Shown piece after piece: positions 11,960 through 23,933 of a stretch of DNA of 64,000 nt. The DNA comes from an uncultured Acidobacteriota bacterium. Lineage in GTDB: Bacteria; Acidobacteriota; Thermoanaerobaculia; UBA5066. The stretch is taken from NCBI GenBank assembly GCA_963779415.1, contig CAVZYA010000001.1, positions 512,001-576,000 of the forward strand. The letters run 5' to 3'. The position numbers were made by a program, and so were the translations under genes. The notes beneath the pieces are model-generated. The model searched no databases, was not told where the DNA came from, and saw only the letters and a list, made by a program, of their open reading frames with translations. Every line of letters starts with the position of its first letter. Position 1 is the first letter of the stretch.

Positions 11960-11999
11960 CCGTCAGACTTAATAACGTGCCTTCATGGAGGTCCAAAAC

Positions 12000-13484
12000 A
12001 TGGCGGAAAAAAGAAATGTCGAGATCAAGAGCCGACAGGACACGCTGGCTCTGATCACTCCAGAAATCAGGCCCTGGCCTGTCTCACCACCCCCTTCGCC
12101 GGAGGAAGTGAAGAAGTCCTACGCCAAGCGGAAAGCCGAGGTGTTCGGCCAGTGGCTCGAAGACAACATGCGTCTCGAGTATTCCTGGCAGAAACCCGAG
12201 GCCCTGCAGGGCCTGAAGGTCCTCGACATCGGGCTCTGGAGGCTGGGGCACAAGTTCGGCGCCTCCACGCTCGCGCAGGCCGGTGCCGAGGTGATCTGTA
12301 TCGAGCCCCCCACGGGCGACCCGCTCAGACAGCTGACCCCCTTCGGGCGGGAAGAGTACATGCTCGCCGACAAGGAAACCGGCGAGAAGTGCGGCCTCGG
12401 GTTCATCGACATACACCGGAACACGCACTCGGTCACCCTCAACGTCGAGACTCCGGAGGGGCAGGAGCTGTTCAAGAAGCTCGCGGTCCACGCCGACATC
12501 GTCCTTGACGGGATGCTCCCCGGCTACATGGACAACCTCGGGATCGGGTACCGGGACCTCTCCCAGATCAACTCCCGCCTCATCTACGTGAACGTCATGC
12601 TCCGGGGATCCTGGGGCCCGGCAAAAGACCGCGTCTCCAAGTTCGGCCAGTGGGAACTGGATCCCTTCGCGCAGGCGACCAATTCGTACATTCACAACAC
12701 CGGCTTCGCTCAGGACGCGCTGCCGCGCGGCAAAGGGGGCGACCCGACCCGGGCCGGGTCGTGGCTCGCCGACTATGTCGCCGGCGAGCAGGCGGCCGTC
12801 AACGCCCTCGCGGCGATCTACTGGCGGGAAGAGGTCAGCAATGAGGGGCAGTTCATCGAGGTGACCGGCGCCGAGACCCTGATGGACATCCTCGACTTCG
12901 ACATCTCCTGGTACGGCTTCAACGGCAGCATCAAGGCGCGGACAGGGGGATGGGACCCCAACCTGAACCAGTATGCGTGGAACCCGTGCCGGGACGGCTA
13001 CATGATGATCGGCGGCCAGAGCGACCGGCTCTGGTACCGGATCGGCATGTGCATCGAGCGGGACTTCCCGCAGTTCGGCCGGCTCATCCACGAAGACCCC
13101 TTCCTGAAGGAAGTCGGCGCGCGGAACGCCCTCCACGCCCTCATCAAGACCTACACCGTCACGACGCGCTGGCTCCGGGAGACCAATCGGATCGAGGCCG
13201 AAGAGAAGCTGATGGACTACGAGATCGCGGCCGGCCCGCTCCTCTTCATCGACGAGACCTGCGAGTTCCCCCACTTCAAGTACCGGCCCTGGGTCTACAA
13301 CTGCGAGACGGACTACGGGACCGTCCTCTACTCGACGGTCAATAACGCCTATCAGATGAGGACGCCGCACCGGGTCAAGTGGCTCGGGAGACGGCTCGGC
13401 AAGGACAACTACGACGTCTACCAGCGCTGGGCCGGACTGGGCCCGAACAAGGTGGACCAGCTCAAGGGAAAGGGGGCGATCTAA
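12000..13484 (+). CDS. Class III (CaiB/BaiF) CoA-transferase, subunit 1
   Basis: [55 protein letters not shown], putative catalytic Asp in WLADYVAG; GGAGG before ATG 12000. Confidence 0.85.
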
Positions 13485-14872
13485 TGGCCGGCGAGATCAG
13501 ACCCAAGAGTGCGGGCGAGCTGCATGAGATGCGGGCGCCCTACGAGGAGTTCTGCCGGAAGGCCTTCGATCCCGGCAACGAGCACTCGAAGCCCGAGTCG
13601 CTGAAGGGGATCCGGTGGCTCTCCTGCACGATGTACATCTTCACGCCCCACTCGGCCGCGAACCTGGCCGAGCTGGGCGCCGAGGTGATCAAGATCGAGA
13701 TCCCCCGGATGGGCGACGCCATGCGGCACACCTCGCCCTTCAACGAGGCGTACCTCTATCCCCTCCACGACACCCGGCCGGGGACGGGAACCGGGTTCGG
13801 GTTCACGAACGCCAACCCGAACAAGCACTTCATCTCCCTCGACTATCACGTACCGGAGATGCGGGAAGTTTTCTACAACATGGTCCGGCAGAGCGACGGG
13901 CTGACCGAGCTCTACCGTCCCGGGACCTTTGACCGCTGGAAGATGAGCTACCCGACCCTCGCGCAGATCAACCCGCGGTTCATCTACGTCTGGGGCGGCG
14001 GGTTCGGCTACGGGCCGAAGGTCTTCGGGGGCTCCTATGACATCCTCGCGCAGTCCCACGCCGGGTTCGCGTCCATCACCGGAATGCACGACTTCATGGG
14101 CGGCCACTGCTCCAAGTCATCCAACTGGGTCATGGACTGGGCCTCCGGCACCCTGATCACGTTCGGGATCCTCGCCTCCATTCTCTGGCGCCGGAAGACC
14201 GGCCTCGGCACCATGATCGAGTTCTCGCAGGTGCAGACCTCCACGATGTTCACCGAGTATGCCGTTCCTCTTTACGGCCGGTTCGGCATCGTCCGGCAGC
14301 GGTGGGGAAACTGGGACACCCAGCTCTGCGCCCACGGGATCATCCTTTGCGGCAAATCCGACTTCCCCGATGCCCAAAACCCGCAGGACAAGTTTGACGC
14401 CCGGTACGTCATGGTCTCCGCCTTCCAGGATGCGGACTTCAAGGAACTCTGCAACGTCGTCGGCCGGAAAGACATCTACGATAAATACAAAACGCACAAG
14501 GACCGGCTCGACCCCCGGGCCCAGGTCGACATCTACCAGGCGCTCGAGAAATGGGCCGGAGACAAGACCCGGGCGGCGGTGGTCAAGGTCCTGACCGACG
14601 CCGGCATCCTCGCCTCCCCCGTCATGAACGACCGGGAAGTCTACGAGTACGAGCACTACCGCGAGCGGGGCACCGTCCGCTGGATCGACGACCCCCTCTT
14701 CGGCGACTTCCTCCTGCAGGCCGGCTACAGCGCCGGCCACCTGGCCAAGACCCCGAGAAGGACGAACTGGATCTGGCGGCCCGTTGGCGCCGACAATGTC
14801 AAGATCTACCGGGATCTGCTCGGCTATCCACTGAGCAAGATCGAGGAGTGGTATGGCAAGGCCTACATCTAA
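13484..14872 (+). CDS. Class III (CaiB/BaiF) CoA-transferase, subunit 2
   Basis: [40 protein letters not shown], Asp in VMDWASG; ATG overlaps the upstream stop (TAATG). Confidence 0.87.
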
Positions 14873-14886
14873 AAGGAGGCAGCGCC

Positions 14887-15372
14887 GTGTGTGACATCAT
14901 CTGGTGCAAGAAGCAGGTTTCCGGCAAGACGTGCAACACCGTCAATTACCTGGACCCGTACAACTTCTGGAACTGGGAAGGCAAGGTGAACTGCGCCGAG
15001 TGCGGGACCGTCTACGCCATCCACATGATCCAGGGCTTCATGTACAAGGGGCCAACGGAGAAACCCGGAGAGAAGCCCGACATGAGTCCCCTCTACGCCG
15101 ACAAGCCGCTGGAGGGCTACCGGTGTTACCTTCCCGGGATCGAGGGCAGGACGAGGCCTTGGCAGTGCCTCCCCCGACATATCTACCTCGGCCACGCGGA
15201 CACGGTGAAGTGGAGCCTCCGCGGAAGACCCGTGCGTGGCTGGCGTCCTCAGCCGAAGTCTGCAGGCATCGCTGGAAGCTTCGGCCACAAGTGGGATATC
15301 GAGAAACTCTCACCGGAGATCTGGGCCGAATACCAGGAGAAGCTGAAGAGCGGGAAGCTGAAGGACTGGTGA
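14887..15372 (+). CDS. Hypothetical Cys/Trp-rich protein with N-terminal Zn-ribbon-like motif
   Basis: AAGGAGG RBS plus GTG; MCDIIWC-x8-C...CAECG; codon usage like the neighbouring genes. Confidence 0.72.
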   Translation: MCDIIWCKKQVSGKTCNTVNYLDPYNFWNWEGKVNCAECGTVYAIHMIQGFMYKGPTEKPGEKPDMSPLYADKPLEGYRCYLPGIEGRTRPWQCLPRHIYLGHADTVKWSLRGRPVRGWRPQPKSAGIAGSFGHKWDIEKLSPEIWAEYQEKLKSGKLKDW

Positions 15373-15394
15373 GACATTCAGAAAGGAGCGCCAC

Positions 15395-15655
15395 ATGGCC
15401 GAGGGAAAACAGTTAACGCCTGAAGAATTCCTGGCTACGGTTCTCGTGCCGCAGTATGGCCGGGAAAGCGGGCACATGTGCTGGGATTGCAAGCACTTCA
15501 AACCGGTTCTGAAGGGCTCCAAGTTCCCGCCCACCGACACGATCGGCTGGTGCACGCAGATCCACTGGCCCTTCTACTGGTGCGTGACGGACTTCAACGT
15601 CGTCAAGAAGTGCTACGCCTTCGAGAAGGGCATTTACACCTTCAAGAAGTTCTGA
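15395..15655 (+). CDS. Small putative Fe-S protein (BssB/BssC-like Cys spacing)
   Basis: AAGGAG RBS; CWDCKHF...GWC...KKCYAFEKG. Confidence 0.65.
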   Translation: MAEGKQLTPEEFLATVLVPQYGRESGHMCWDCKHFKPVLKGSKFPPTDTIGWCTQIHWPFYWCVTDFNVVKKCYAFEKGIYTFKKF

Positions 15656-15656
15656 C

Positions 15657-15950
15657 ATGGAGGAGAACGTCCGGAAGGAGCTGGATACGCTCACGGGGAT
15701 GGTGCTGACCTGGAAGAAGGACTATCTCGGGTCGGTATCATCCGATGAGGACTGCGAGTACCTCGCTCGGGAATTCCTGGACGAGGTGGAGACCCACGTC
15801 TACCCCTACGTGAGGAGGCTCATGGAATGCAATTTCCTCACGGGACCGGAGGCGACGGAGTTTCTCGACTCCTGCTATCGCCAGGCAGAGGAGCTGAACA
15901 AAGCCATCCAGCAGCCGGACGCCAAACAGGGTGAAACGATAGGAGGGTAA
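15657..15950 (+). CDS. Hypothetical small helical protein
   Basis: ATG 1 nt after the upstream stop; 97 aa acidic amphipathic sequence. Confidence 0.65.
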   Translation: MEENVRKELDTLTGMVLTWKKDYLGSVSSDEDCEYLAREFLDEVETHVYPYVRRLMECNFLTGPEATEFLDSCYRQAEELNKAIQQPDAKQGETIGG

Positions 15951-15952
15951 AC

Positions 15953-16372
15953 ATGGCTGAGAAATGCCGAGTGGGGGTCTGCGGGTACGACCCCGTTCTG
16001 GTGAAGGGATACGTCAAGACAGGCGAGCGAGCCCTCTGGTGGCACCTGTCGGACGAGGTGTACGAACAATACCAGGTGAAGCCGGGTGACACCGTCACCG
16101 GGAAGATCCTGGCGGTTTACGACGGGACCGGCACGAAGACGGCCTCCCCGAACGAGCCCTTCGAGTGGAAGTGCCCGAAGGAGTCGGGCCTGGCGGTCCT
16201 CCTGCCGCCTGCGACCATCGTCAAGTTCAAGCTCTCCGCTTTCCATTTCCTCGAGCTGCTCGTGGAGAAGGTCGGCGGAAAGGACGTCTATCCCGGCAAG
16301 GAGCAGATGAGCTTGAAATGGTGGCCCGAAGAGAGGATGAAGCTCGACTACAAGGTGCCTTACATCGAGTAG
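15953..16372 (+). CDS. Hypothetical protein, possibly a tandem swapped-hairpin (AbrB-like) barrel
   Basis: AGGAGG RBS; two similar segments WHLSDEVYEQYQVKPGDTV and LLPPATIVKFKLSAFHFL; fold call is inference. Confidence 0.65.
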   Translation: MAEKCRVGVCGYDPVLVKGYVKTGERALWWHLSDEVYEQYQVKPGDTVTGKILAVYDGTGTKTASPNEPFEWKCPKESGLAVLLPPATIVKFKLSAFHFLELLVEKVGGKDVYPGKEQMSLKWWPEERMKLDYKVPYIE

Positions 16373-16512: not shown

Positions 16513-16566
16513 ATGTATCCTCGGCGATGGAACGGTGACATTCGATCGGAAGGGAGAATCGCGTAC

Positions 16567-16809
16567 ATGACAGAACACGACAAGCCGAATGAAGAGGGCT
16601 ACACGGCTCCGGCGTACGTCGACCCGGCGATGGGCGACAGCCCCCCCGTCGGAGGCCTGATTGACAACGAGGCCGTCTGCCGGGACTGCATGACCGCCGC
16701 CGAGGAAGTCAGCATGCGGCGCGGGTTTGTCGACCCCGTCTCCGAGCAGCAGGCCAAGGCGAAGGGGACCGTCTGCGCCCGGTGCGGCAAGAAACTCGTC
16801 GCCGCGTAG
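16567..16809 (+). CDS. Small Zn-finger protein (CxxC...CxxC)
   Basis: GGGAG RBS; VCRDC...VCARCGKKL. Confidence 0.68.
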   Translation: MTEHDKPNEEGYTAPAYVDPAMGDSPPVGGLIDNEAVCRDCMTAAEEVSMRRGFVDPVSEQQAKAKGTVCARCGKKLVAA

Positions 16810-16852
16810 CGCCCCCTTCAATCCAGCCGGACGGGGCGGGCGGAATCACCTC

Positions 16853-17266
16853 ATGGCAGAGCCGGAAAAGGCCCCACGACGAGAGGTCGTCGAGCAGCTC
16901 CTGCCGCTCGTGGTGGAGTTGATTCCAGGGCAGGCGGCTGAAGGCCTGATCGAAGTGCTCGAGCCGGGCAGCTACGAGGCCCATTCCCTCCGGACGCTTT
17001 GCGAGAATCTCCTCAGGAGAACGAACTGGAGCGTGGAGGAGCAGCAGGTCCTGGAGGACATCAGGAGACAGCTCGACGGGGGCCGGCTCCTCTGCCGGGG
17101 CCGACCCGTCGACGGCCGGGCTCTGGATCTCGCGGTGGTCGAGGAAACCGAAGCAGGCGAGAAGTATCTCTATGTGCCTGTCCACGCCATCAGGCCGCAG
17201 GAAGGCGGAGGCGCGGCACCCCGGATCGCGCACCAAAGTTCAGCAGACGAGAGCAGGAGCCTATGA
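16853..17266 (+). CDS. Putative ubiquitin-like (beta-grasp) protein with di-Gly motif and C-terminal extension
   Basis: RLLCRGRPVD resembles ubiquitin RLIFAGKQLE; final strand YLYVPVHAI then RPQEGG and an 18-aa tail; E1, E2-like and JAB genes adjacent. Confidence 0.6.
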   Translation: MAEPEKAPRREVVEQLLPLVVELIPGQAAEGLIEVLEPGSYEAHSLRTLCENLLRRTNWSVEEQQVLEDIRRQLDGGRLLCRGRPVDGRALDLAVVEETEAGEKYLYVPVHAIRPQEGGGAAPRIAHQSSADESRSL

Positions 17267-17469
17267 GTTCCAGGTTCGTAGTCACGGAGAGCACCACGGT
17301 GGACGATGTTGCCGCGGCGGGCCGGCCCGACCCCCTCTACTGCAAACTCGGCCTGGGCCAGCAGGCCCGCGTCCTCGCGGACGAGATCGATGCCGCGCTT
17401 GGTGGGGATACGAGCTGCGGGGGCGCCGGACTCGGATATGTTCCGGACATCGTAGAGGTTGAAGAATAG
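17263..17469 (+). CDS. Small hypothetical protein (68 aa) with DTSCGG and acidic tail
   Basis: AGGAG RBS; ATG overlaps the upstream stop (ATGA); MSSRFVVTE...VPDIVEVEE. Confidence 0.55.
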   Translation: MSSRFVVTESTTVDDVAAAGRPDPLYCKLGLGQQARVLADEIDAALGGDTSCGGAGLGYVPDIVEVEE

Positions 17470-17482
17470 CCTGGAGAATCGC

Positions 17483-17677
17483 GTGGAGATAGAGGCTCCC
17501 AAGGACTGGGACCCGAAGTGCCCAAAGTGCCAGGAAGAGCTTCGACGAATGCTCGAGCTGTCACAGTCGGTCTACGAGGACCTCGACCACGGCGCGGGGT
17601 TGTACCGGTTGCCGTTGCCACCTTGCACGCACCATGCGGCGCAGGGCGAGCACAAAGACGCAGGAGGGGTCGCTTGA
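17483..17677 (+). CDS. Small putative Zn-binding protein
   Basis: GGAG plus GTG; KCPKC...PPCTHH. Confidence 0.5.
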   Translation: MEIEAPKDWDPKCPKCQEELRRMLELSQSVYEDLDHGAGLYRLPLPPCTHHAAQGEHKDAGGVA

Positions 17678-17717
17678 CAGACCCACTTGTGGCTTTCCGG
17701 CCGTCGGGCGCCCCGGC

Positions 17718-18929
17718 ATGATGGATCTGCTGGAGTCCGACCTGGAGCTCGTCGTCCGGTCAGGATTCATCTACCTGCCGCTCCTCTTTGATCCTTCGGT
17801 GGCGACGGAGATCGAGGGGAACGTGGGCAATCACCTGGTCGCCCGGGACGCCGGCAGGCATTTCGTTCGGACGATGAGCCTGCGATCGCTCGTTTCAAGC
17901 TACGAGGCTCTCTGGCCGAAGTCGTACGAGAAGTTGCGGCGGTCGAAGCTGTGCCGGTTCTCCGGGGACCTTTCGCCGGCCGAAACGGGCGCCAGCGAGC
18001 GGCTGAAGGAGATCCTCTTCTCCGTCATGCCGCACTTCGTCAGGAGGGGGAAGCGGCTCGACAGGAGGCGGCTGACCGAGGAGGACGTGCTGGACCTCAT
18101 CGAGGAGAGAACCGGACTTCCCGGCGGATACGCCATGGCTGCAGCCAGCGCTCGGGATCCGGGCTCCATCCGGCAGATCCTCGTGGAACTCGAGGAACGC
18201 CGCCCGGCGGCCGAGCCGCTGCCCGAGGGCCGAATGTCTGCGCGGACCCTCGCGGATTGGCTTCTGCGCGCCCAGGAAGCCCGGATTCTGGAAGAGGAGA
18301 GCCAGCGACTGACGGGGTTTCTCTCCGCGCAGGAGGGCCTCGATACGAGGGCGGCCAGGCGGCTGGCGATTTTGCGGTGCGTCGCGGAGAAGGGGACGTT
18401 GGAAATCGACGGATTCGGCTTTCTGAGGACAGGACCCGGCGACGACTACGTGATCTACAAGCGCACCGGCGAGTTCGCTCTCAAGGACTACTACGGTCGG
18501 CTCTATCTGTTTCCGGATTGCCGGGTTGCCGTGTCGACGGCCGCTGGCCTCAGGCCCTTCGTCGTGGAGACCTACAAGCATCCGTTTCTCGAGGCCCACG
18601 ACTCCGGCCAGGAGATCTGCCTGGGCCGCACCACGGCGCGCCGCTTCTCCGGAGCGGCGGCGATCGTCGAGGCTCTGCAGGAGGGAATCAACGCCCTGCT
18701 CCATGGCTACAGCAGCCGGCGCCGAAACGGGTACCACAGACTGGAGGGACTGTTGAGGTCGGTCCGGCTCCCTGGCCCGGACGATCCCGGCTACCCGGAA
18801 CCGCCGGACGACAGGCCCCGCTCCAAGCGGCACATCCTGGACGTCGACTTCGACGACTACCGCATCCCGGCCGATCACCCCGGGATCGTGTCGGGTCGGG
18901 TCGAGATCACCAACGACGTCGTGCCGTGA
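17718..18929 (+). CDS. Putative prokaryotic E2/UBC-like conjugating protein with long helical N-terminus
   Basis: YKHPFLEAHDSGQEICLG resembles UBC HPN-x(n)-GxICL with a Cys, preceded by beta-strands and followed by a helix; start uncertain. Confidence 0.55.
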   Translation: MMDLLESDLELVVRSGFIYLPLLFDPSVATEIEGNVGNHLVARDAGRHFVRTMSLRSLVSSYEALWPKSYEKLRRSKLCRFSGDLSPAETGASERLKEILFSVMPHFVRRGKRLDRRRLTEEDVLDLIEERTGLPGGYAMAAASARDPGSIRQILVELEERRPAAEPLPEGRMSARTLADWLLRAQEARILEEESQRLTGFLSAQEGLDTRAARRLAILRCVAEKGTLEIDGFGFLRTGPGDDYVIYKRTGEFALKDYYGRLYLFPDCRVAVSTAAGLRPFVVETYKHPFLEAHDSGQEICLGRTTARRFSGAAAIVEALQEGINALLHGYSSRRRNGYHRLEGLLRSVRLPGPDDPGYPEPPDDRPRSKRHILDVDFDDYRIPADHPGIVSGRVEITNDVVP

Positions 18930-19402
18930 TGACGACGGACGACACCCTCTCGCGGGACGAGCCGCCCCGGGCGACGCCGGATCTGTTGCGGGACATAAGA
19001 ACCATGCGCGCCGGCAGGCGGCGGAAGGAGCCCTTTCGGACGAGCCTCTACTCCCGGGTCGGGGGTCTGGTGAGGCGATATGGCCTGGACGAGGCGTTCC
19101 TCCGGGCGCTCGACTCCCCGGGCGGCTTCTCCCGGGACGGCCGTCCGGATGCCGTCCGGCCGAAGGGGAAAGCGCCCTATGCTCCTCCCCTCTTTTTCCT
19201 TTCCACGGAGAGAGAGCACCGCGTGACGACGGTCATCCTGGAGAAAGTGAAGAGCCCGTTCCTCGCGTACGCCACGTCGCCCGACGAGATTCTCCTCTGC
19301 GAACGCCTGTTCCGTGAGGACCCGTCCCTTTCTCAGGAAACGCTCGCGTGCCATCATTTCGAGACGTTGATGCCGGCCGGAGCGGATTCCGGGCCGGGCT
19401 GA
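18929..19402 (+). CDS. Hypothetical protein within the Ubl cluster
   Basis: ATG overlaps the upstream stop (TGATG); fills the gap to the ATPase gene. Confidence 0.6.
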   Translation: MTTDDTLSRDEPPRATPDLLRDIRTMRAGRRRKEPFRTSLYSRVGGLVRRYGLDEAFLRALDSPGGFSRDGRPDAVRPKGKAPYAPPLFFLSTEREHRVTTVILEKVKSPFLAYATSPDEILLCERLFREDPSLSQETLACHHFETLMPAGADSGPG

Positions 19403-19417
19403 GGCGGGAGGAGAGTC

Positions 19418-20518
19418 GTGGAACGGATTTCGCCGCAACGCCGCCGGGAGATCGGGGAGAGAGTCGGCGCATTCCGCGAGAGCCAGGTCGGCGACGCCGT
19501 CAATCAGATTCTCGAGTTCGACAAGACGCCGGCCGACCTCAAGGCCTACATGGACCGGTTCGTCATCGGCCAGGAGCAGGGGAAGAAGATCATCTCCGTC
19601 GGCATCGCCTACCATTACCGGAGGCTCGCGGCGGCCCTCAGGCGCGCCGTCGTCGAGAACGGCGAGGAGCTGGGCGCCGCCTTGCACGGCGCGGCCACGC
19701 CGAAGGCCAACATCCTGATCGTGGGGCCCCCCGGCTGCGGGAAGACCTACACGGGCGAGGTCGCCTCCCGGCTCGTGGGGGTGCCGTTCGCCGTGGAGGA
19801 CCTGACGAAGTTCAGCGAAACGGGCTACGTGGGCCAGAACGTGAGCGACATCCTCCTGGACCTGCTGATCGCGGCCGGCGGCAACCCCCAGGTGGCCCAG
19901 ATGGGCATCGTCTACCTGGACGAGATCGACAAGATCGCCGCCGAGCCGATCGTCTCGAAGGACGTGTCGGGGCGCGGGGTCCAGAAGGGGCTCCTCAAGC
20001 TCGTCGAGGGGGCCGAGAACACCATCGACCTGGGCCAAGAACGGATCTCCCTTTCCACCCGACACGTCCTGTTCATCGCAGGAGGCGTGTTCGAGGGGCT
20101 GGAAGGAACCGTCGGAAAGCGGATGGAAAGGGATCGTCTCGAAGGCGAGTGGAAGGACCACCTCCTCACGGACGACTTCGTCGGCTGCGGGATGGAGCGG
20201 CAGCTCATGGGGAGGTTCCCCGTTCGGGCCGTCTACGACCCGCTCAGCGTCGAAGACCTCAAGAACATCCTGCTCGAGAGCGAGGAGAGTCCGTCCCGCG
20301 CCTACATCGACGACCTGAAGGCGTGGAACATCGAACTCCGGTTCACGGACGGCGCTCTCACGGAGGTCGCGAGGCGCGCGCAGCAGGATCGGACGGGCGC
20401 CCGGGGACTCATCGGCATCCTCCACAAGGTGCTTCTGGAGGACATGTACCGGCTTCCGGGCGTCCACACCGGCGAGCTGGTGGTGGACGAGAAGTACATC
20501 CGGGAGCGGCTCGGGTGA
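19418..20518 (+). CDS. ClpX-like AAA+ ATPase lacking Zn-binding domain, RKH loop and IGF loop
   Basis: VIGQ, Walker A GPPGCGKT, pore loop GYVG, Walker [20 protein letters not shown], sensor II TGARGL. Confidence 0.88.
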
Positions 20519-21321
20519 GATTCCGGGGGCTCTCGGAGCTGAAGCGCGCGCCATGCTTCGAGGCTCCCGTGGGAACCCTGCCGGAGTGGATCCGGATGAC
20601 GCGTCACTCCCTCGCGAAGGCCTTCAAGATCAACGAGCTCGTCCGGTCCGTCCACGGGGACAGCTACGAGTGGTACGGATTCACCGTCGCCGAGCGGAGC
20701 GATCCGGAGCTGGTCGTGGACGTTCTTCTTCCGGCCAACGACGAGAACTTCACGGACCACACCCGCGTCGCACCCGAGGCGATCGACGCGTCGAGAGAGT
20801 CCCTCCCCCGGGATCGGGTGATCAACGGCTGGATCCACTCCCACGGGGCCCTGCCGTACGAAGGGTTCTCCTTCGTGGACGAGAGGAACCAGGAGGCCGT
20901 GACCGATTACGTGAACACGCTTCTCAGGAAGCCGGTGGCCAAGAAGGAGATCCTGATCAGGGACCTCGCGATCCTCGTCGAGGGCCGCTTCTCGGAGAAG
21001 GAGCTGGAGCAGGGAAGCGTCGCGCTCATCACCGACGCCCCCGTCAAGGAGGCCCGGATCATCGAGACCATATACGGAAGCTTCTGCTTCGCCATCGTCA
21101 TCGGCGACGACGGCTGGCACAGGCAGCAGGTCCATTACCGCAGGCGGGGCATCCTTTCCGGGCAGACGACCGAGGAGAGCCGGGACACCGACATCGTCCT
21201 TTCGGGCGACGCGCGGCCGCTCACCGAGGCGGAGATCCAGATGCTGGCGGACGAGGTCCGCACCCGGATCCGGCCGGGCGTGGCCGTTCCACCCGAGCGG
21301 TTCGAGCGGGAGGCGACATAA
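20515..21321 (+). CDS. JAB/MPN+ (JAMM) metallo-isopeptidase
   Basis: Glu in YEWYGF plus GWIHSHG-x7-SFVD; GTG overlaps the ATPase stop (GTGA). Confidence 0.82.
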
Positions 21322-21358
21322 GGTCGGCGGCGGCCTGGGGCGAAGGGACGCGATCGGC

Positions 21359-22636
21359 ATGGAGACGGGACCGGCTCGCGAGAAGGCGCATGACCCGAGG
21401 CTGGACCGCCAGCTCCGGATCCCGAACTGGAACCAGCGGGCCCTCGAGGAGGCGCGGCTCGCCGTCTTCGGCGACGACGACCTTCTCGCCTCGCTCTACG
21501 TCCTCTCCGCCGCGGCCCTCGGCGTGAACGACGTCGTCCTGATCGCGCCCGCCTGGAATGAGAAGCTGATCGAAATCGCCCGCCAGCTCAATCCGAGGCT
21601 CAGGCTGGCCCTCCTCGAGGGGCTCCACACCCACCCGGTCCTGGAGGAGCTCTTCAGGCCCTGCACGGCCATCGTGGACCTCACCCGCTACGCTCTGGCC
21701 AACAAGCTTCTGCTGGAGACGGGCTACCGGTCGGGAATTCCGGTGATCCGTGGGTTCTGCCTCGAGAAAGACGGGTGGGAAGGGCTCTCCGTCTTCACCT
21801 ACAGGCGCGGCCGGGAGTGGGAGGAGCTCCGGGAGCTCGTCTCGCCCTCCAATCTTCCCTGCGACCACTTCGACGACGCGATTCTGGCCCTCGTCGCGGC
21901 CGGCATCGCCCTGGAAGAAACCAAGAACGTCATCATGGGACACCGGGTGTCGGAGGAGCTGATCGGCTACAGGCGGCCGAAGGTGGTTCCCCTGGAGCCC
22001 GACTCCGGCGTCATCATCGTCGGCGCCGGCGCCCTGGGTAACTTCGTCGGGCTCGGACTGGCCTGTACGGGGCTCCGGCGAATCACGGTCGTCGATCCCG
22101 ACGTGGTGGACGTGACTAACCTCAACAGGCAGGTGCTCCTGGCCGGCGGCGTAGGCCGAAGCAAGGCCGAGGTCCTCTGCGAGCGCCTGCACTCCCTCTT
22201 CGGAATCCGGGCGGAGGCCCGGGTGGCTTATTTCCGGAAGGACTCCGAGCTCGACGCCTCCGACGCTGTCTTCGATTGCGTGGACAACTTCGAGACCCGG
22301 GTGATCCTGAGTGAGAGGTGCCGGGAAGAGGGAAAGGTGCTCATCAGCGGCGGCACGGGCCCTCAGGCCGGACAGGTCATCGTGTTCGATCCGGCGCGCC
22401 CGAGCGAAACGCCCGCGGAGGTTCTGGGACTCTACGAAATCGTCGAGAGGCGGGAGATCGACGCCTTCCGGAGGGAGACGGCGTCCTGCGCCTACCAGCC
22501 CGATCCGTCCGTCGTCATGACGAATCAGATTATCGGAGGATTGATGGCCGATTCCTATCGTAGGCTCCTGGCCGGAGAGGAGACCCCGAATATCTTCTAC
22601 GATTCGAGGAACGACGCCCGGATCTTCGGGGGGTGA
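21359..22636 (+). CDS. E1-like (ThiF/MoeB/UBA) activating enzyme with tandem inactive and active adenylation domains
   Basis: N-half RLDRQLRI...AVFGDDDLL lacks GxGxxG; C-half IIVGAGALG, DPDVVDVTNLNRQ, GRSKA, DCVDN; candidate catalytic Cys in TASCAY. Confidence 0.88.
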   Translation: METGPAREKAHDPRLDRQLRIPNWNQRALEEARLAVFGDDDLLASLYVLSAAALGVNDVVLIAPAWNEKLIEIARQLNPRLRLALLEGLHTHPVLEELFRPCTAIVDLTRYALANKLLLETGYRSGIPVIRGFCLEKDGWEGLSVFTYRRGREWEELRELVSPSNLPCDHFDDAILALVAAGIALEETKNVIMGHRVSEELIGYRRPKVVPLEPDSGVIIVGAGALGNFVGLGLACTGLRRITVVDPDVVDVTNLNRQVLLAGGVGRSKAEVLCERLHSLFGIRAEARVAYFRKDSELDASDAVFDCVDNFETRVILSERCREEGKVLISGGTGPQAGQVIVFDPARPSETPAEVLGLYEIVERREIDAFRRETASCAYQPDPSVVMTNQIIGGLMADSYRRLLAGEETPNIFYDSRNDARIFGG

Positions 22637-22709: not shown

Positions 22710-23933
22710 ATGAGCAGCGAGAACGACGTCGCGCAGACTCAGGAGGACCAGCCGATCGGCTGGCAGCGCCTCGGCGACGTCCTGACACCGCCGATTCCCG
22801 GCTTCGAGGACCTCCTCTTCCTTCCGAGCCTCGACAATCAGTCCTCCAACATCTACGTCCTGCCGGGGGACTGCGTAACGATCGTGGACCCGGGGAACGA
22901 TTACACGGCCTTAATGGAGCTCTTCCCTGCGAGAGCCAGGCCCGAGGACGTCAGGAAGATCGTCCTGACGCACGGGCATTTCGACCACGCCATGGGGGCG
23001 CTCGAGTTCCTCAGGACGTATCCGGATCGCCCCACGGGCGCGCGCATCGAGCTGATCCTCCACGAAGGGGGTCCCGACCAGTTCAAGCAGACGGCGAGGG
23101 AGCAGGGCGCCTCCGTGACCGAGGTACGGGGCGGGGAGACTCTCGAGCTGAGCGGCCTTTCCTTCGACGTGATCTACACGCCAGGCCATACCATCGACGG
23201 CATCGCCCTCTATCACGCCCCCTCGAGGACCGTCTTCAGCGGCGACGTCGTGCTGCCGCTCGCGGTAGCCGGACCCGATCCCAAGGCCGGGGGAAGCCTG
23301 GACCAGTACCTGTTCGGGCTGAGGGCGTTGCTCGCGAGGGAGATCGAGAACGTCCTCCCGGGCCACGGCCCCGTCGTCGGCCCGGGCGGGAGGAAGGTCA
23401 TCGAGCAGACCTACGAGGCCGTCATGATGAAGCTCCTGGGGGTCGAGAAGCCGATCCCGTGGATCCAGGGTGCCATTCAGCTCGCGGAGCGCGGGCTGCT
23501 GGAAGAGGCCGTTTTCTGCGCCGGGAAAGAGCTGGCCCGCGACCCGGGGCACGCCAAGGCCCTCGAGCTCAAGGCCGTGTGCCTCAACGATCTCGGGCGG
23601 TCGTCTGAGGCCCTCGAGGTCCTGGATCGGCTGCAGGAGCTGCAGGCCGGCGACGATGCGTTCATCCACGTCGGCAGGGGATATGCCCTCATGGGGCTTG
23701 GCCAGTTCGAGGAGAGCGTCAAGTGCTTCGACGCCGCTCTCCGCATCACGCCGGGCCTGAGGGACGCGCTCGTCTACAAGGGGATGGCCCTCCATCTCTC
23801 GGGGAACCACGAGGAGGCCATGGACATCGAGCCCTTCAGGACGGAGTTCATGGGGCGGTTCCGGAGCGAGCTGCTCAAGGCGTCGCGGCCCGCCCCGAAG
23901 GATGGCCTCGCCGAAGGCACTGGAAAGGCCTGA
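22710..23933 (+). CDS. Metallo-beta-lactamase-fold hydrolase with C-terminal TPR repeats
   Basis: THGHFDH, TPGHT, FSGD, PGHG; TPR-like helices in the C-terminal third. Confidence 0.85.
   Translation: MSSENDVAQTQEDQPIGWQRLGDVLTPPIPGFEDLLFLPSLDNQSSNIYVLPGDCVTIVDPGNDYTALMELFPARARPEDVRKIVLTHGHFDHAMGALEFLRTYPDRPTGARIELILHEGGPDQFKQTAREQGASVTEVRGGETLELSGLSFDVIYTPGHTIDGIALYHAPSRTVFSGDVVLPLAVAGPDPKAGGSLDQYLFGLRALLAREIENVLPGHGPVVGPGGRKVIEQTYEAVMMKLLGVEKPIPWIQGAIQLAERGLLEEAVFCAGKELARDPGHAKALELKAVCLNDLGRSSEALEVLDRLQELQAGDDAFIHVGRGYALMGLGQFEESVKCFDAALRITPGLRDALVYKGMALHLSGNHEEAMDIEPFRTEFMGRFRSELLKASRPAPKDGLAEGTGKA

Follow-up and report, generated by a model that had tools for sequence, protein, structure and literature searches.

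A ClpX-like ATPase without the ClpP-docking loop belongs to a six-gene ubiquitin-like protein cluster of bacteria and DPANN archaea

What is a ClpX-type motor for when it has lost the loop by which ClpX docks its protease? The question is raised by a gene in a 64,000-nucleotide stretch of DNA (the window; C1:512001–576000) from an uncultured Acidobacteriota bacterium, which encodes a ClpX-like AAA+ ATPase amid genes for a ubiquitin-like protein (Ubl), an E1-like activating enzyme, an E2-like protein and a JAMM/MPN peptidase (JAB). Our answer, to which we would give a probability of roughly 55%, is that the protein is a hexameric AAA+ unfoldase descended from ClpX, has given up docking to ClpP and serves as a dedicated part of a six-gene Ubl conjugation system. 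In that capacity, judging from its sequence and setting, it would probably unfold Ubl-tagged proteins without degrading them.

The first step is to establish what kind of motor the gene encodes. The NCBIfam ClpX models are its best matches, yet both fall below their cut-offs (PRK05342, 258.1 bits versus 359; TIGR00382, 235.3 versus 370.75), and Pfam recognises AAA_2 (6.6e-18), AAA (3.4e-12) and ClpB_D2-small (1.1e-05). The match covers positions 59–401 of the 418 in the ClpX model and, because it begins only at position 59, the protein is taken to be without the N-terminal domain. It is no HslU: TIGR00390 matches in three separate stretches at 152.4 bits versus a cut-off of 362.45, and the large insertion of the HslU type (the I-domain) is absent, the ATPase aligning end to end with ClpX. 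Nor does it group with the classic-clade AAA proteins, as the PAN, CDC48 and FtsH models match about 100 residues at 15–23 bits. In a phmmer search, its closest match in the PDB was E. coli ClpX (chain 4i34_A, E 2e-56, query residues 37–361), and the two proteins align exactly at GYVG, DEIDK, GR(F/L)PV and GARGL. A GGAGGAG run resembling a Shine-Dalgarno sequence lies directly 5′ of the ATPase start. An antisense open reading frame (ORF) of 559 aa (18875–20554) faces the gene, the high GC content yielding very long spurious open frames.

An alignment of the family (A3; 17 rows, mean column identity 72%) shows how strictly the motor has been kept. Invariant residues include G103, G106 and G108-K109-T110 of Walker A (with P104 in at least 90% of rows), the pore loop G136-Y137-V138-G139, the stretch D168-E169-I170-D171-K172, R266 (GRFPV), R329 (GARGL) and W245. 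Walker A and B, the GYVG pore-1 loop, the arginine finger and sensor-2 are all among them, and every motor motif listed in the earlier note on this DNA can be read in the translation.

The elements by which ClpX docks its protease and recognises substrates have fared differently. Relative to E. coli ClpX, there is a 7-residue gap exactly at GGRKHPQ (the RKH loop), a 15-residue gap that removes TGSGIGFGATVKAKS, including the IGF tripeptide, and a 3-residue gap that shortens the pore-2 loop. When aligned together with E. coli ClpX, the window ATPase and 16 of 16 full-length orthologs (the partial ortholog L022 being set aside) showed neither the RKH nor the [ILMV]GF loop, nor any CxxC in the N-terminus, the roughly 30 residues before the AAA+ module. 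Canonical ClpX rows, on the other hand, had two CxxC and an [ILMV]GF loop in nine of nine cases and the RKH loop in eight. The earlier note's claim that the C4 zinc domain, the RKH loop and the IGF loop are gone from the window protein therefore holds for all 17 family rows, and a search of the same 17 for an IGF-equivalent loop, which that note would have counted against its own view, found none. In place of the zinc finger, residues 1–36 form an amphipathic segment peculiar to the family, while the former position of the IGF loop is occupied by the invariant W245.

Phylogeny indicates that this loss is not recent. A quick IQ-TREE analysis (LG+C20+F+G4, SH-aLRT) covering 59 rows, with two HslU sequences as the root and drawn without L022, the tandem protein P0121 and 35 of the 54 long-family loci described below, recovered canonical ClpX as one clade (support 99) with the window ATPase outside it. 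The IGF-less proteins form a separate clade of 27 rows (SH-aLRT 98), made up of 17 operon proteins and ten other short metagenome proteins. Since they constitute one supported clade, loss of the docking loop must be old and shared by a single lineage, rather than the product of recent decay. That clade belongs to a second group (support 93), together with a Woesearchaeal, IGF-bearing form and a long family marked by the motif FSETGYVGG, which retains a loop of the IGF type (support 98).

The long family is a second non-canonical branch of ClpX-like proteins in its own right. It was found at 54 loci among L026–L087 (for example, L026:9842–11467 and L033:9989–11524), in ORFs of about 480–650 aa that lack a zinc finger, have some 11 residues inserted at the RKH position and keep the [ILMV]GF loop; its hosts include Acidobacteriota, Verrucomicrobiota, Myxococcota, Spirochaetota, Thermodesulfobacteriota and others. 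A further oddity is P0121/P0281, a protein of 1238 aa from Candidatus Caenarcaniphilales named “AAA family ATPase”, in which three ClpX-like AAA+ modules stand in tandem and no IGF loop is visible in the sequence. It looks like a covalently linked unfoldase pseudo-trimer.

Is ClpP, or another chambered peptidase, nonetheless the partner? The window genome (three contigs, 92% complete) has one ClpP-family match, at C2:696607–697146, with a canonical clpX (636 bits, exceeding its cut-off) immediately downstream, and one HslV-type match, at C2:390261–390770, beside hslU-like matches. As the earlier note had stated, neither gene is near the ATPase: both are on contig C2, and the window is on C1. 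The hslU-like matches sit in a 634-aa open frame adjoining hslV (genome G000, C2:388969–390770). When the genome's own ClpP was used to search the 80 loci fetched with the window ATPase, clpP was found in five of seven canonical clpX loci versus none of the 17 ortholog loci, and in none of the 54 loci of the long family or the two others. Three of the carriers are DPANN archaea, and in each the cassette ATPase is the sole ClpX-family match and no ClpP-family match was found, which for metagenome-assembled genomes (MAGs) whose completeness is not established means “not found” and not proven absence. With no such match, an ATPase that depended on ClpP would be useless in these archaea. Taken together, the lost docking loop, the absence of clpP from all 17 loci and the archaeal carriers without a ClpP match make the ATPase's independence of ClpP well supported.

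It is conceivable that the ring still feeds ClpP, HslV, a 20S proteasome or some other peptidase through an interface other than the IGF loop, and most members of the ClpX/HslU family do work with a chambered peptidase. The window genome possesses both ClpP and HslV, and the former IGF site holds an invariant tryptophan. This alternative is nevertheless improbable, given the clpP counts above and the archaeal carriers. Proteasomal ATPases follow a rule by which the C-terminal tail ends in hydrophobic-Tyr-X (HbYX), and the C-termini in A3 end ...ERLG/E/R/K instead; moreover, the only peptidase that recurs near the operon is the JAMM protein.

The second well-supported element of our reading is the dedication of the ATPase to the Ubl genes. 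A search of one genome per species recovered 17 loci (L008–L024) with orthologs at 52–84% identity, after which the next match falls to 43%. Most carriers are labelled Thermodesulfobacteriota or “Deltaproteobacteria”, with Binatia also represented; the closest ortholog (84%) comes from one “Acidithiobacillales” MAG, and the DPANN carriers, a woesearchaeote, an aenigmatarchaeote and a nanoarchaeote, have theirs at 52–54%. Searched by tblastn with the window neighbours, these 17 loci, bacterial and archaeal, show a matching gene set with a recurring order: proteins of 116–138, about 400 and 140–225 aa, then the ATPase, followed by proteins of about 268 aa and, from the ThiF family, 425 aa. The last, the E1, varies in position, its gene closing the cluster in some loci and opening it in others. 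When ORFs from 20 loci were clustered, only these six core genes recurred, plus an MBL-TPR gene in six loci. The cluster is thus a system of six core genes, for the Ubl, the E2-like protein, the 158-aa protein, the ATPase, the JAMM peptidase and the E1.

The linkage is equally strict in a broader sample, consisting of 401 genomes from the phylum of carrier G401 (ATPase ortholog threshold E<=1e-95); this sample overlaps L008–L024, so that the two data sets are not independent. The ATPase, JAB and E2-like genes occur in the same 18 genomes, and no genome has only one or two of the three. JAB adjoins the ATPase in all 18, its start at most some 30 bases from where the ATPase match ends, and the E2-like gene is just upstream on the same contig in 16, the cassette being split in one of the remaining genomes and fragmented in the other. 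On the complete chromosome of G401 the cassette is split: the Ubl, ATPase and JAB genes lie together, with the E2-like gene, the 158-aa homolog and the E1 750 kb away, from which it follows that the ATPase travels with the tag and the tag-remover and not with the conjugating enzymes. Even the deepest IGF-less branch (L107; P0135/P0278), from one of two loci recovered by a metagenome scan with P0278, keeps the company of genes for a Ubl ending ...PQHGG plus three residues and for a 451-aa E2-like protein, both on the 5′ side, and of a JAMM gene 3′ of the ATPase, with no 158-aa gene.

The split in G401 also bears on a rival explanation, namely that the ATPase is a chaperone of the pathway and acts on the system's own parts instead of on tagged targets. 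It might present the Ubl precursor to the JAMM peptidase, strip Ubl from E1, E2 or oligomers, or assemble and recycle the E1–E2 pair. The grouping of ATPase, Ubl and JAB fits the handling of free Ubl as well as it fits the handling of conjugates, the Ubl has both a disordered N-terminal tail and a C-terminal tail in need of removal, and oligomerisation has been reported for bacterial Ubls from other operon families (PMC11601603). Against this, Bil-type systems process and conjugate their Ubl with E1, E2 and JAB alone, no ATPase being mentioned in the main texts, and a full unfoldase with an invariant pore loop would be a costly device for trimming a flexible tail. Overall, we consider a role as pathway chaperone unlikely, and the unfolding of tagged targets better supported.

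The coordinates of the operon are collected in Table 1.

Table 1. Genes of the Ubl operon in the window
Feature	Position	Strand	Description
Ubl modifier precursor	16853..17266	+	137 aa; disordered N-terminal tail, beta-grasp-like core, PQEGG, 18-aa tail after GG
Two small lineage-specific non-core ORFs	17263-17469, 17459-17677	+	no family match
E2-like protein	17718..18929	+	N-terminal domain of ~250 aa and C-terminal HPF...GQEIC core
158-aa core protein	18926..19402	+	basic N-terminal helix, conserved helical C-terminal domain
ClpX-like AAA+ ATPase	19418..20518	+	GTG start, 366 aa; residues 1-36 family-specific segment, then AAA+ large and small domains
JAMM/MPN peptidase (JAB)	20515..21321	+	268 aa, Rpn11/CSN5-like
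E1-like activating enzyme	21359..22636	+	425 aa; ThiF adenylation domain in C-terminal half

Among these partners, the tag is recognisable mainly by its end. In the Ubl alignment (A1, 14 rows), P115, Q116, E117, G118 and G119 are invariant and are followed by 0–18 non-conserved residues, the protein ending exactly at GG in two of the 14 rows. Its AF2 model is beta-grasp-like (pLDDT 79.4, with residues 1–8 and 118–137 below 50) and matches 8tyz_B, the Ubl (BilA) of a bacterial E1–E2–Ubl complex, at Z 5.5 in VIA-align. Gly-Gly ends are also found elsewhere in the window, on a 97-aa, helical-looking ORF of a CoA-transferase cluster (15657–15950, ...GETIGG) and on the E1 itself (...ARIFGG). The two small ORFs that follow the Ubl gene were both found by tblastn in L008 and the second in L009, and neither in the rest of the 17 ortholog loci.

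The identity of the JAB was settled by fold, because a fold search matched MPN proteins where sequence searches had found none. By sequence it had no match in Pfam, NCBIfam or PADLOC, and a 17-sequence profile found no relative in the PDB; a Prok-JAB search of its own genome gave a sub-threshold match elsewhere only, and in the Atlas it falls among unnamed clusters and a fourth one that has Prok-JAB in 48% of its members. Its AF2 model (pLDDT 86.2), by comparison, had 57 Foldseek matches in the PDB at E<=0.001, such as CSN6, Rpn8/Rpn11, BRCC36, the Caldiarchaeum Rpn11 homolog and PfJAMM1, and the residues E52, H108, S109, H110, S119 and D122 (E...HSH...S..D) are invariant in all 17 rows of its alignment (A2).

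The E1 is identified by Pfam ThiF (1.7e-35, residues 216–411), with the NCBIfam ThiF, MoeB and SAMP-E1 models all below their cut-offs. Its N-terminal half matches no family and is inferred to be a degenerate second adenylation-type domain. In PADLOC it gives a partial match to the E1–E2 models of the Cap2 type, and no other component of the operon has a relevant match. The protein of about 400 aa has no match in Pfam, NCBIfam or PADLOC and is a candidate E2-like protein by its motif, P317, I328 and C329 being invariant and H316 present in at least 90% of the 16 rows of alignment A4; its frame is open from 17634, and orthologs align from about M29, at 17718. The 158-aa protein was found by tblastn in 13 of the 17 loci. 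Its archaeal counterparts are larger, at 396–451 aa (L018:8733–9941, L020:3598–4953 and L021:8796–9986), and share the basic N-terminal helix and an NPY-containing helical domain, to which a C-terminal extension of about 250 aa is added. DNA matching the operon region (16850–22636) was present in 20 sequence datasets, all of them DNA metagenome runs with a small share and none of them RNA.

The earlier note also saw translational coupling between the ATPase and JAB genes in their GTGA overlap. The overlap is real: the JAB start (GTG, 20515–20517) overlaps the TGA of the ATPase (20516–20518), JAB orthologs align from residue 1–2 of this start in all 17 rows, and the same 4-nt overlap is found in 14 of 16 loci as well as in the window. 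It is not, however, specific to this pair. Other gene pairs of the operon overlap as well, and the arrangement therefore reflects tight packing of the operon and not a special relationship between the two.

A very different role would follow if no proteins were tagged at all, and the GG protein were instead a sulfur carrier of the ThiS/MoaD type or a biosynthetic intermediate, with the ATPase serving the maturation of a cofactor or enzyme. Trios of an E1-like protein, a JAB and a GG-protein do occur in sulfur-transfer pathways (PMC1779556), and the proteins that the Ubl matches by fold include MoaD. The genomic surroundings supply a possible client in the form of a neighbouring CoA-transferase complex: MBL-TPR and CoA-transferase operon genes adjoin the Ubl operon in six of 18 loci, and those of the window flank it on either side. 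We regard this explanation as very improbable. It leaves little room for a conserved E2-like protein with an invariant Cys, for a tandem E1 of 425 aa with no Pfam or NCBIfam matches other than those of the ThiF/E1 type, or for a JAB of the large Rpn11/CSN type. Moreover, no sulfur-metabolism gene recurs near the operon, and 12 of the 18 loci are without the MBL-TPR and CoA-transferase neighbours.

Those neighbours merit description for their own sake. In the window, an operon with two CoA-transferase genes and four genes for small, Cys/Trp-rich proteins occupies 11985–16372, the Ubl operon follows its last small gene, and a glyoxalase-II-like MBL-TPR gene (22710–23933) stands on the far side. 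At L013:9183–13124 the CoA-transferase and MBL-TPR elements are contiguous, with related stretches at L009:3–1683 and L019:12959–13567, and the six loci with an MBL-TPR homolog near the Ubl operon are spread across at least two subclades. This proximity could reflect co-mobility or a functional link, for example with the CoA-transferase complex as a target. MBL-TPR was considered as a seventh component, in the manner of “6A-MBL”, and rejected, being glyoxalase-II-like and present in six of the 18 loci only, and lying in L013 on the opposite strand, within the CoA-transferase cluster. A gene for a 98-aa protein with two CxxC pairs (16513–16809) immediately precedes that of the Ubl, and in L010 (2236–2466) a homolog sits between the JAB and E1 genes. 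The operon may thus have an accessory in this protein from time to time.

How, then, might the system operate? Presumably the JAMM peptidase would trim the Ubl tail after the C-terminal Gly-Gly, the tandem E1 would adenylate the Ubl and the E2-like protein would transfer it to target proteins, a step that the 158-aa protein may assist. The ClpX-like ring could then grip the conjugate by means of its GYVG pore loops, with engagement possibly starting at the disordered N-terminal tail of the Ubl and possibly aided by ATPase residues 1–36, and ATP hydrolysis would drive unfolding or extraction of the tagged protein. As no peptidase chamber is attached, the outcome should be remodelling, disassembly or inactivation and not proteolysis. 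The co-inherited JAMM peptidase would finally remove and recycle the Ubl, in the way that Rpn11 works on the ATPase ring of the proteasome. We infer from anatomy and genomic context that the ATPase forms a hexamer, takes Ubl conjugates as substrates, cooperates with the JAMM peptidase and acts non-proteolytically. With an intact motor, the loss of the elements that serve ClpP and ssrA, and the linkage to the Ubl genes, an unfoldase of Ubl conjugates is the most economical reading and is better supported than a chaperone of the pathway, a hidden protease partner or a sulfur-carrier system. Of the Cdc48-like, protease-independent unfoldase envisaged in the earlier note, the independence of ClpP is well supported, and the action on tagged proteins is what gene linkage and anatomy suggest.

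Several points count against the unfolding of Ubl conjugates. Binding of the ATPase to the Ubl, to JAB or to a conjugate is hypothetical; a predicted complex of the ATPase (A3) with JAB (A2) scored an ipSAE of 0.00 in two runs with controls not folded, a result that speaks neither for binding nor against it. Conjugation to proteins is itself deduced, as the E2 assignment derives from a motif. The fold matches of the Ubl are middling, with a best VIA-align Z of 5.9 (diSUMO-2) in a list composed almost wholly of Ubl folds, and with no Foldseek match at E<=0.001 (top rows LC3B, Smt3, NEDD8 and MoaD). The caveat attached above to the DPANN genomes belongs here as well. Finally, an IGF-less relative from Woesearchaeota (L025:9410–10978; P0127), a 522-aa, ClpX-like protein with 43% identity that is extended by 200 aa at its N-terminus, is accompanied by no Ubl, E1, E2 or JAB homolog within 9.4 kb upstream or 2.5 kb downstream, and loss of the IGF loop is therefore no proof by itself of a role with Ubl. 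The earlier note had asked whether homologs occur independently of the Ubl genes, and the answer is divided: in orthologs the linkage is strict (18 of 18), whereas this distant protein lacks it. The view of linkage given here is drawn from loci other than those of seven further IGF-less proteins, P0122, P0124, P0125, P0128, P0129, P0132 and P0139. A coiled-coil-like protein of 404 aa precedes the L025 ATPase, and this branch probably has a partner other than the genes of the Ubl system.

A bolder form of the proposal is that the ClpX-like ring and the Rpn11-type JAMM peptidase constitute one machine, with the peptidase seated over the pore, that recognises a beta-grasp Ubl, draws the tagged protein through and cuts the tag away. 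We offer this tentatively, as a possibility that falls short of probable. Were it correct, the assembly would be a protease-free prokaryotic counterpart of the proteasome lid and base or of Cdc48–Npl4, built on a motor of the ClpX type, where those use a classic AAA one, and spread between bacteria and DPANN archaea. “Tag, unfold, de-tag” would then have arisen, or been assembled, independently outside the eukaryote/Asgard line, and the six proteins would provide a minimal model of ubiquitin-dependent unfolding.

Comparison with known systems helps to place these proposals. The window ATPase resembles canonical ClpX in its single AAA+ module, GYVG pore-1 loop, Walker A and B motifs, arginine finger and sensor-2; it differs in scoring below both ClpX cut-offs, in having no C4 zinc domain, RKH loop or IGF loop and a shorter pore-2 loop, in bearing its own 36-residue N-terminal segment, and in standing outside the canonical clade at loci that have clpP in 0 of 17 cases. 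Both halves of the proposed role have precedents, one in a ClpX that unfolds without proteolysis and one, described below, in tagging without a proteasome. Yeast is not known to possess ClpP. In mitochondria, ClpX switches ALAS on by unfolding part of it and does not degrade it; the yeast form, Mcx1, is a ClpX-family motor put to non-proteolytic partial unfolding (PMC7077987). Unlike the window system, this one involves no covalent tag, E1, E2 or JAMM protein, and the motor recognises ALAS directly by an N-terminal element of the client itself.

In the Pup–ARC/Mpa–Dop system, bacteria likewise attach a tag covalently, and have an AAA+ unfoldase as well as an enzyme that takes the tag off again. 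Pup, however, is intrinsically disordered and is ligated by a glutamine-synthetase-like enzyme, not by E1 and E2, and ARC/Mpa is a classic-clade AAA protein with a two-ring collar and not a ClpX-like one. Pupylation can also do without a proteasome: Corynebacterium glutamicum has no prcBA, but it keeps pupylation and draws on it to mobilise stored iron, ferritin being a target (PMC8223512). The Rpt ring of the 26S proteasome with Rpn11, and Cdc48/p97 with Npl4, offer the likeness of an AAA+ unfoldase ring paired with a protein of the MPN/JAMM fold that deals with ubiquitin where the pore opens, a likeness to which the fold matches of JAB point (Rpn11, Rpn8 and CSN6 at E ~1e-5; Npl4 at rank 38). 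In these systems, unlike the window, the ATPase is of the classic AAA type and not of the HCLR/ClpX type; in the window protein no N-domain or OB ring is seen, there is no peptidase chamber, and contact between ATPase and JAB is putative.

In its conjugation genes the window set also resembles BilABCD, where an E1, an E2 and a JAB deubiquitinase accompany a Ubl whose conserved C-terminal Gly is followed by a few non-conserved residues (10.1101/2023.09.26.559546). There, according to the same text, the deubiquitinase pre-processes the Ubl, and BilD carries an inactive domain beside an active adenylation domain (10.1101/2023.09.26.559546); the window E1 is comparable only if its N-terminal half is indeed a degenerate domain of the adenylation type. 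Features of the Bil type found in the window are a Ubl with GG and tail, a ThiF-type E1 and a JAMM JAB; for an E2 with a catalytic Cys, the window offers a candidate by virtue of the H316/P317/I328/C329 motif (16 rows). The composition differs, with six core genes in place of the four of BilA–D: the window set has an E2-like protein of about 400 aa with an extra N-terminal domain, an additional 158-aa core protein and a 268-aa, Rpn11-like JAB, while the main text on BilABCD mentions no AAA+ ATPase, unfoldase or Clp protein (10.1101/2023.09.26.559546). We found no published description of a ClpX-like or AAA+ ATPase in an operon with Ubl, E1, E2 and JAB genes, although supplementary operon tables on Bil and Bub might list such genes. 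As far as the searched literature goes, a ClpX-family unfoldase and a bacterial Ubl conjugation system are joined here in a way not yet described.

The distribution of the cassette raises the question of what it is used for. In the window's own phylum it was found in one of 401 sampled genomes, that of the window itself, and in none of three genomes of the same family; it is therefore rare and patchy, and has probably been transferred laterally. This pattern, with 18 of 401 genomes in the phylum of G401, would suit a defence role, in which the proteins of phages or other mobile invaders are tagged and then unfolded, and which is compatible with the unfolding mechanism favoured above. The orthologs shared by bacteria and DPANN archaea at 52–54% identity suggest lateral transfer as well, and the related E1/E2/JAB systems of the Bil and CBASS kinds are defence systems (10.1101/2023.09.26.559546). 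We nonetheless consider defence a doubtful prospect, if one to be kept in mind. In PADLOC, the relevant matches are confined to Cap2-type E1–E2 models for the E1; no defence genes recur near the operon, the genes flanking it in the window and in L019 have a metabolic or housekeeping look, and a mean column identity of 72% is unusually high for a defence gene. Viral contigs yielded 11 relatives, the best 38% identical, and no ortholog.

Wider relatives of the ATPase are abundant, and their names bear on annotation. A word-based search returned thousands of ClpX-like proteins, the best 120 clusters of which are 322–388 aa long and at least 64% identical; where an organism is named for these clusters it is Desulfobacca, Desulfobaccales, Syntrophobacteraceae or “Deltaproteobacteria”, and where a protein name is given it is “ATP-dependent Clp protease ATP-binding subunit ClpX” (JGI) or “AAA family ATPase” or “hypothetical protein” (NCBI/UniRef). 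A search of a representative library returned mostly other ClpX-like families and gives no estimate of the size of this one. For members of the ATPase family, annotation as part of the ClpX protease is misleading.

The finding matters chiefly for what Ubl systems of prokaryotes can do. The Bil, Bub and CBASS Cap2/Cap3 systems end at tagging and de-tagging, and none in the searched literature has an unfolding motor of its own. In eukaryotes, by comparison, the proteasome and Cdc48/p97 have at their core the coupling of ubiquitin to an unfoldase of the AAA+ class and a protein of the MPN fold. Should the reading given here be true, the window ATPase would be the first beta-grasp-Ubl-directed unfoldase in bacteria, its operon would offer a compact, six-protein system for rebuilding tag-dependent unfolding in vitro, and the family would represent a natural case of a Clp unfoldase turned stand-alone segregase.

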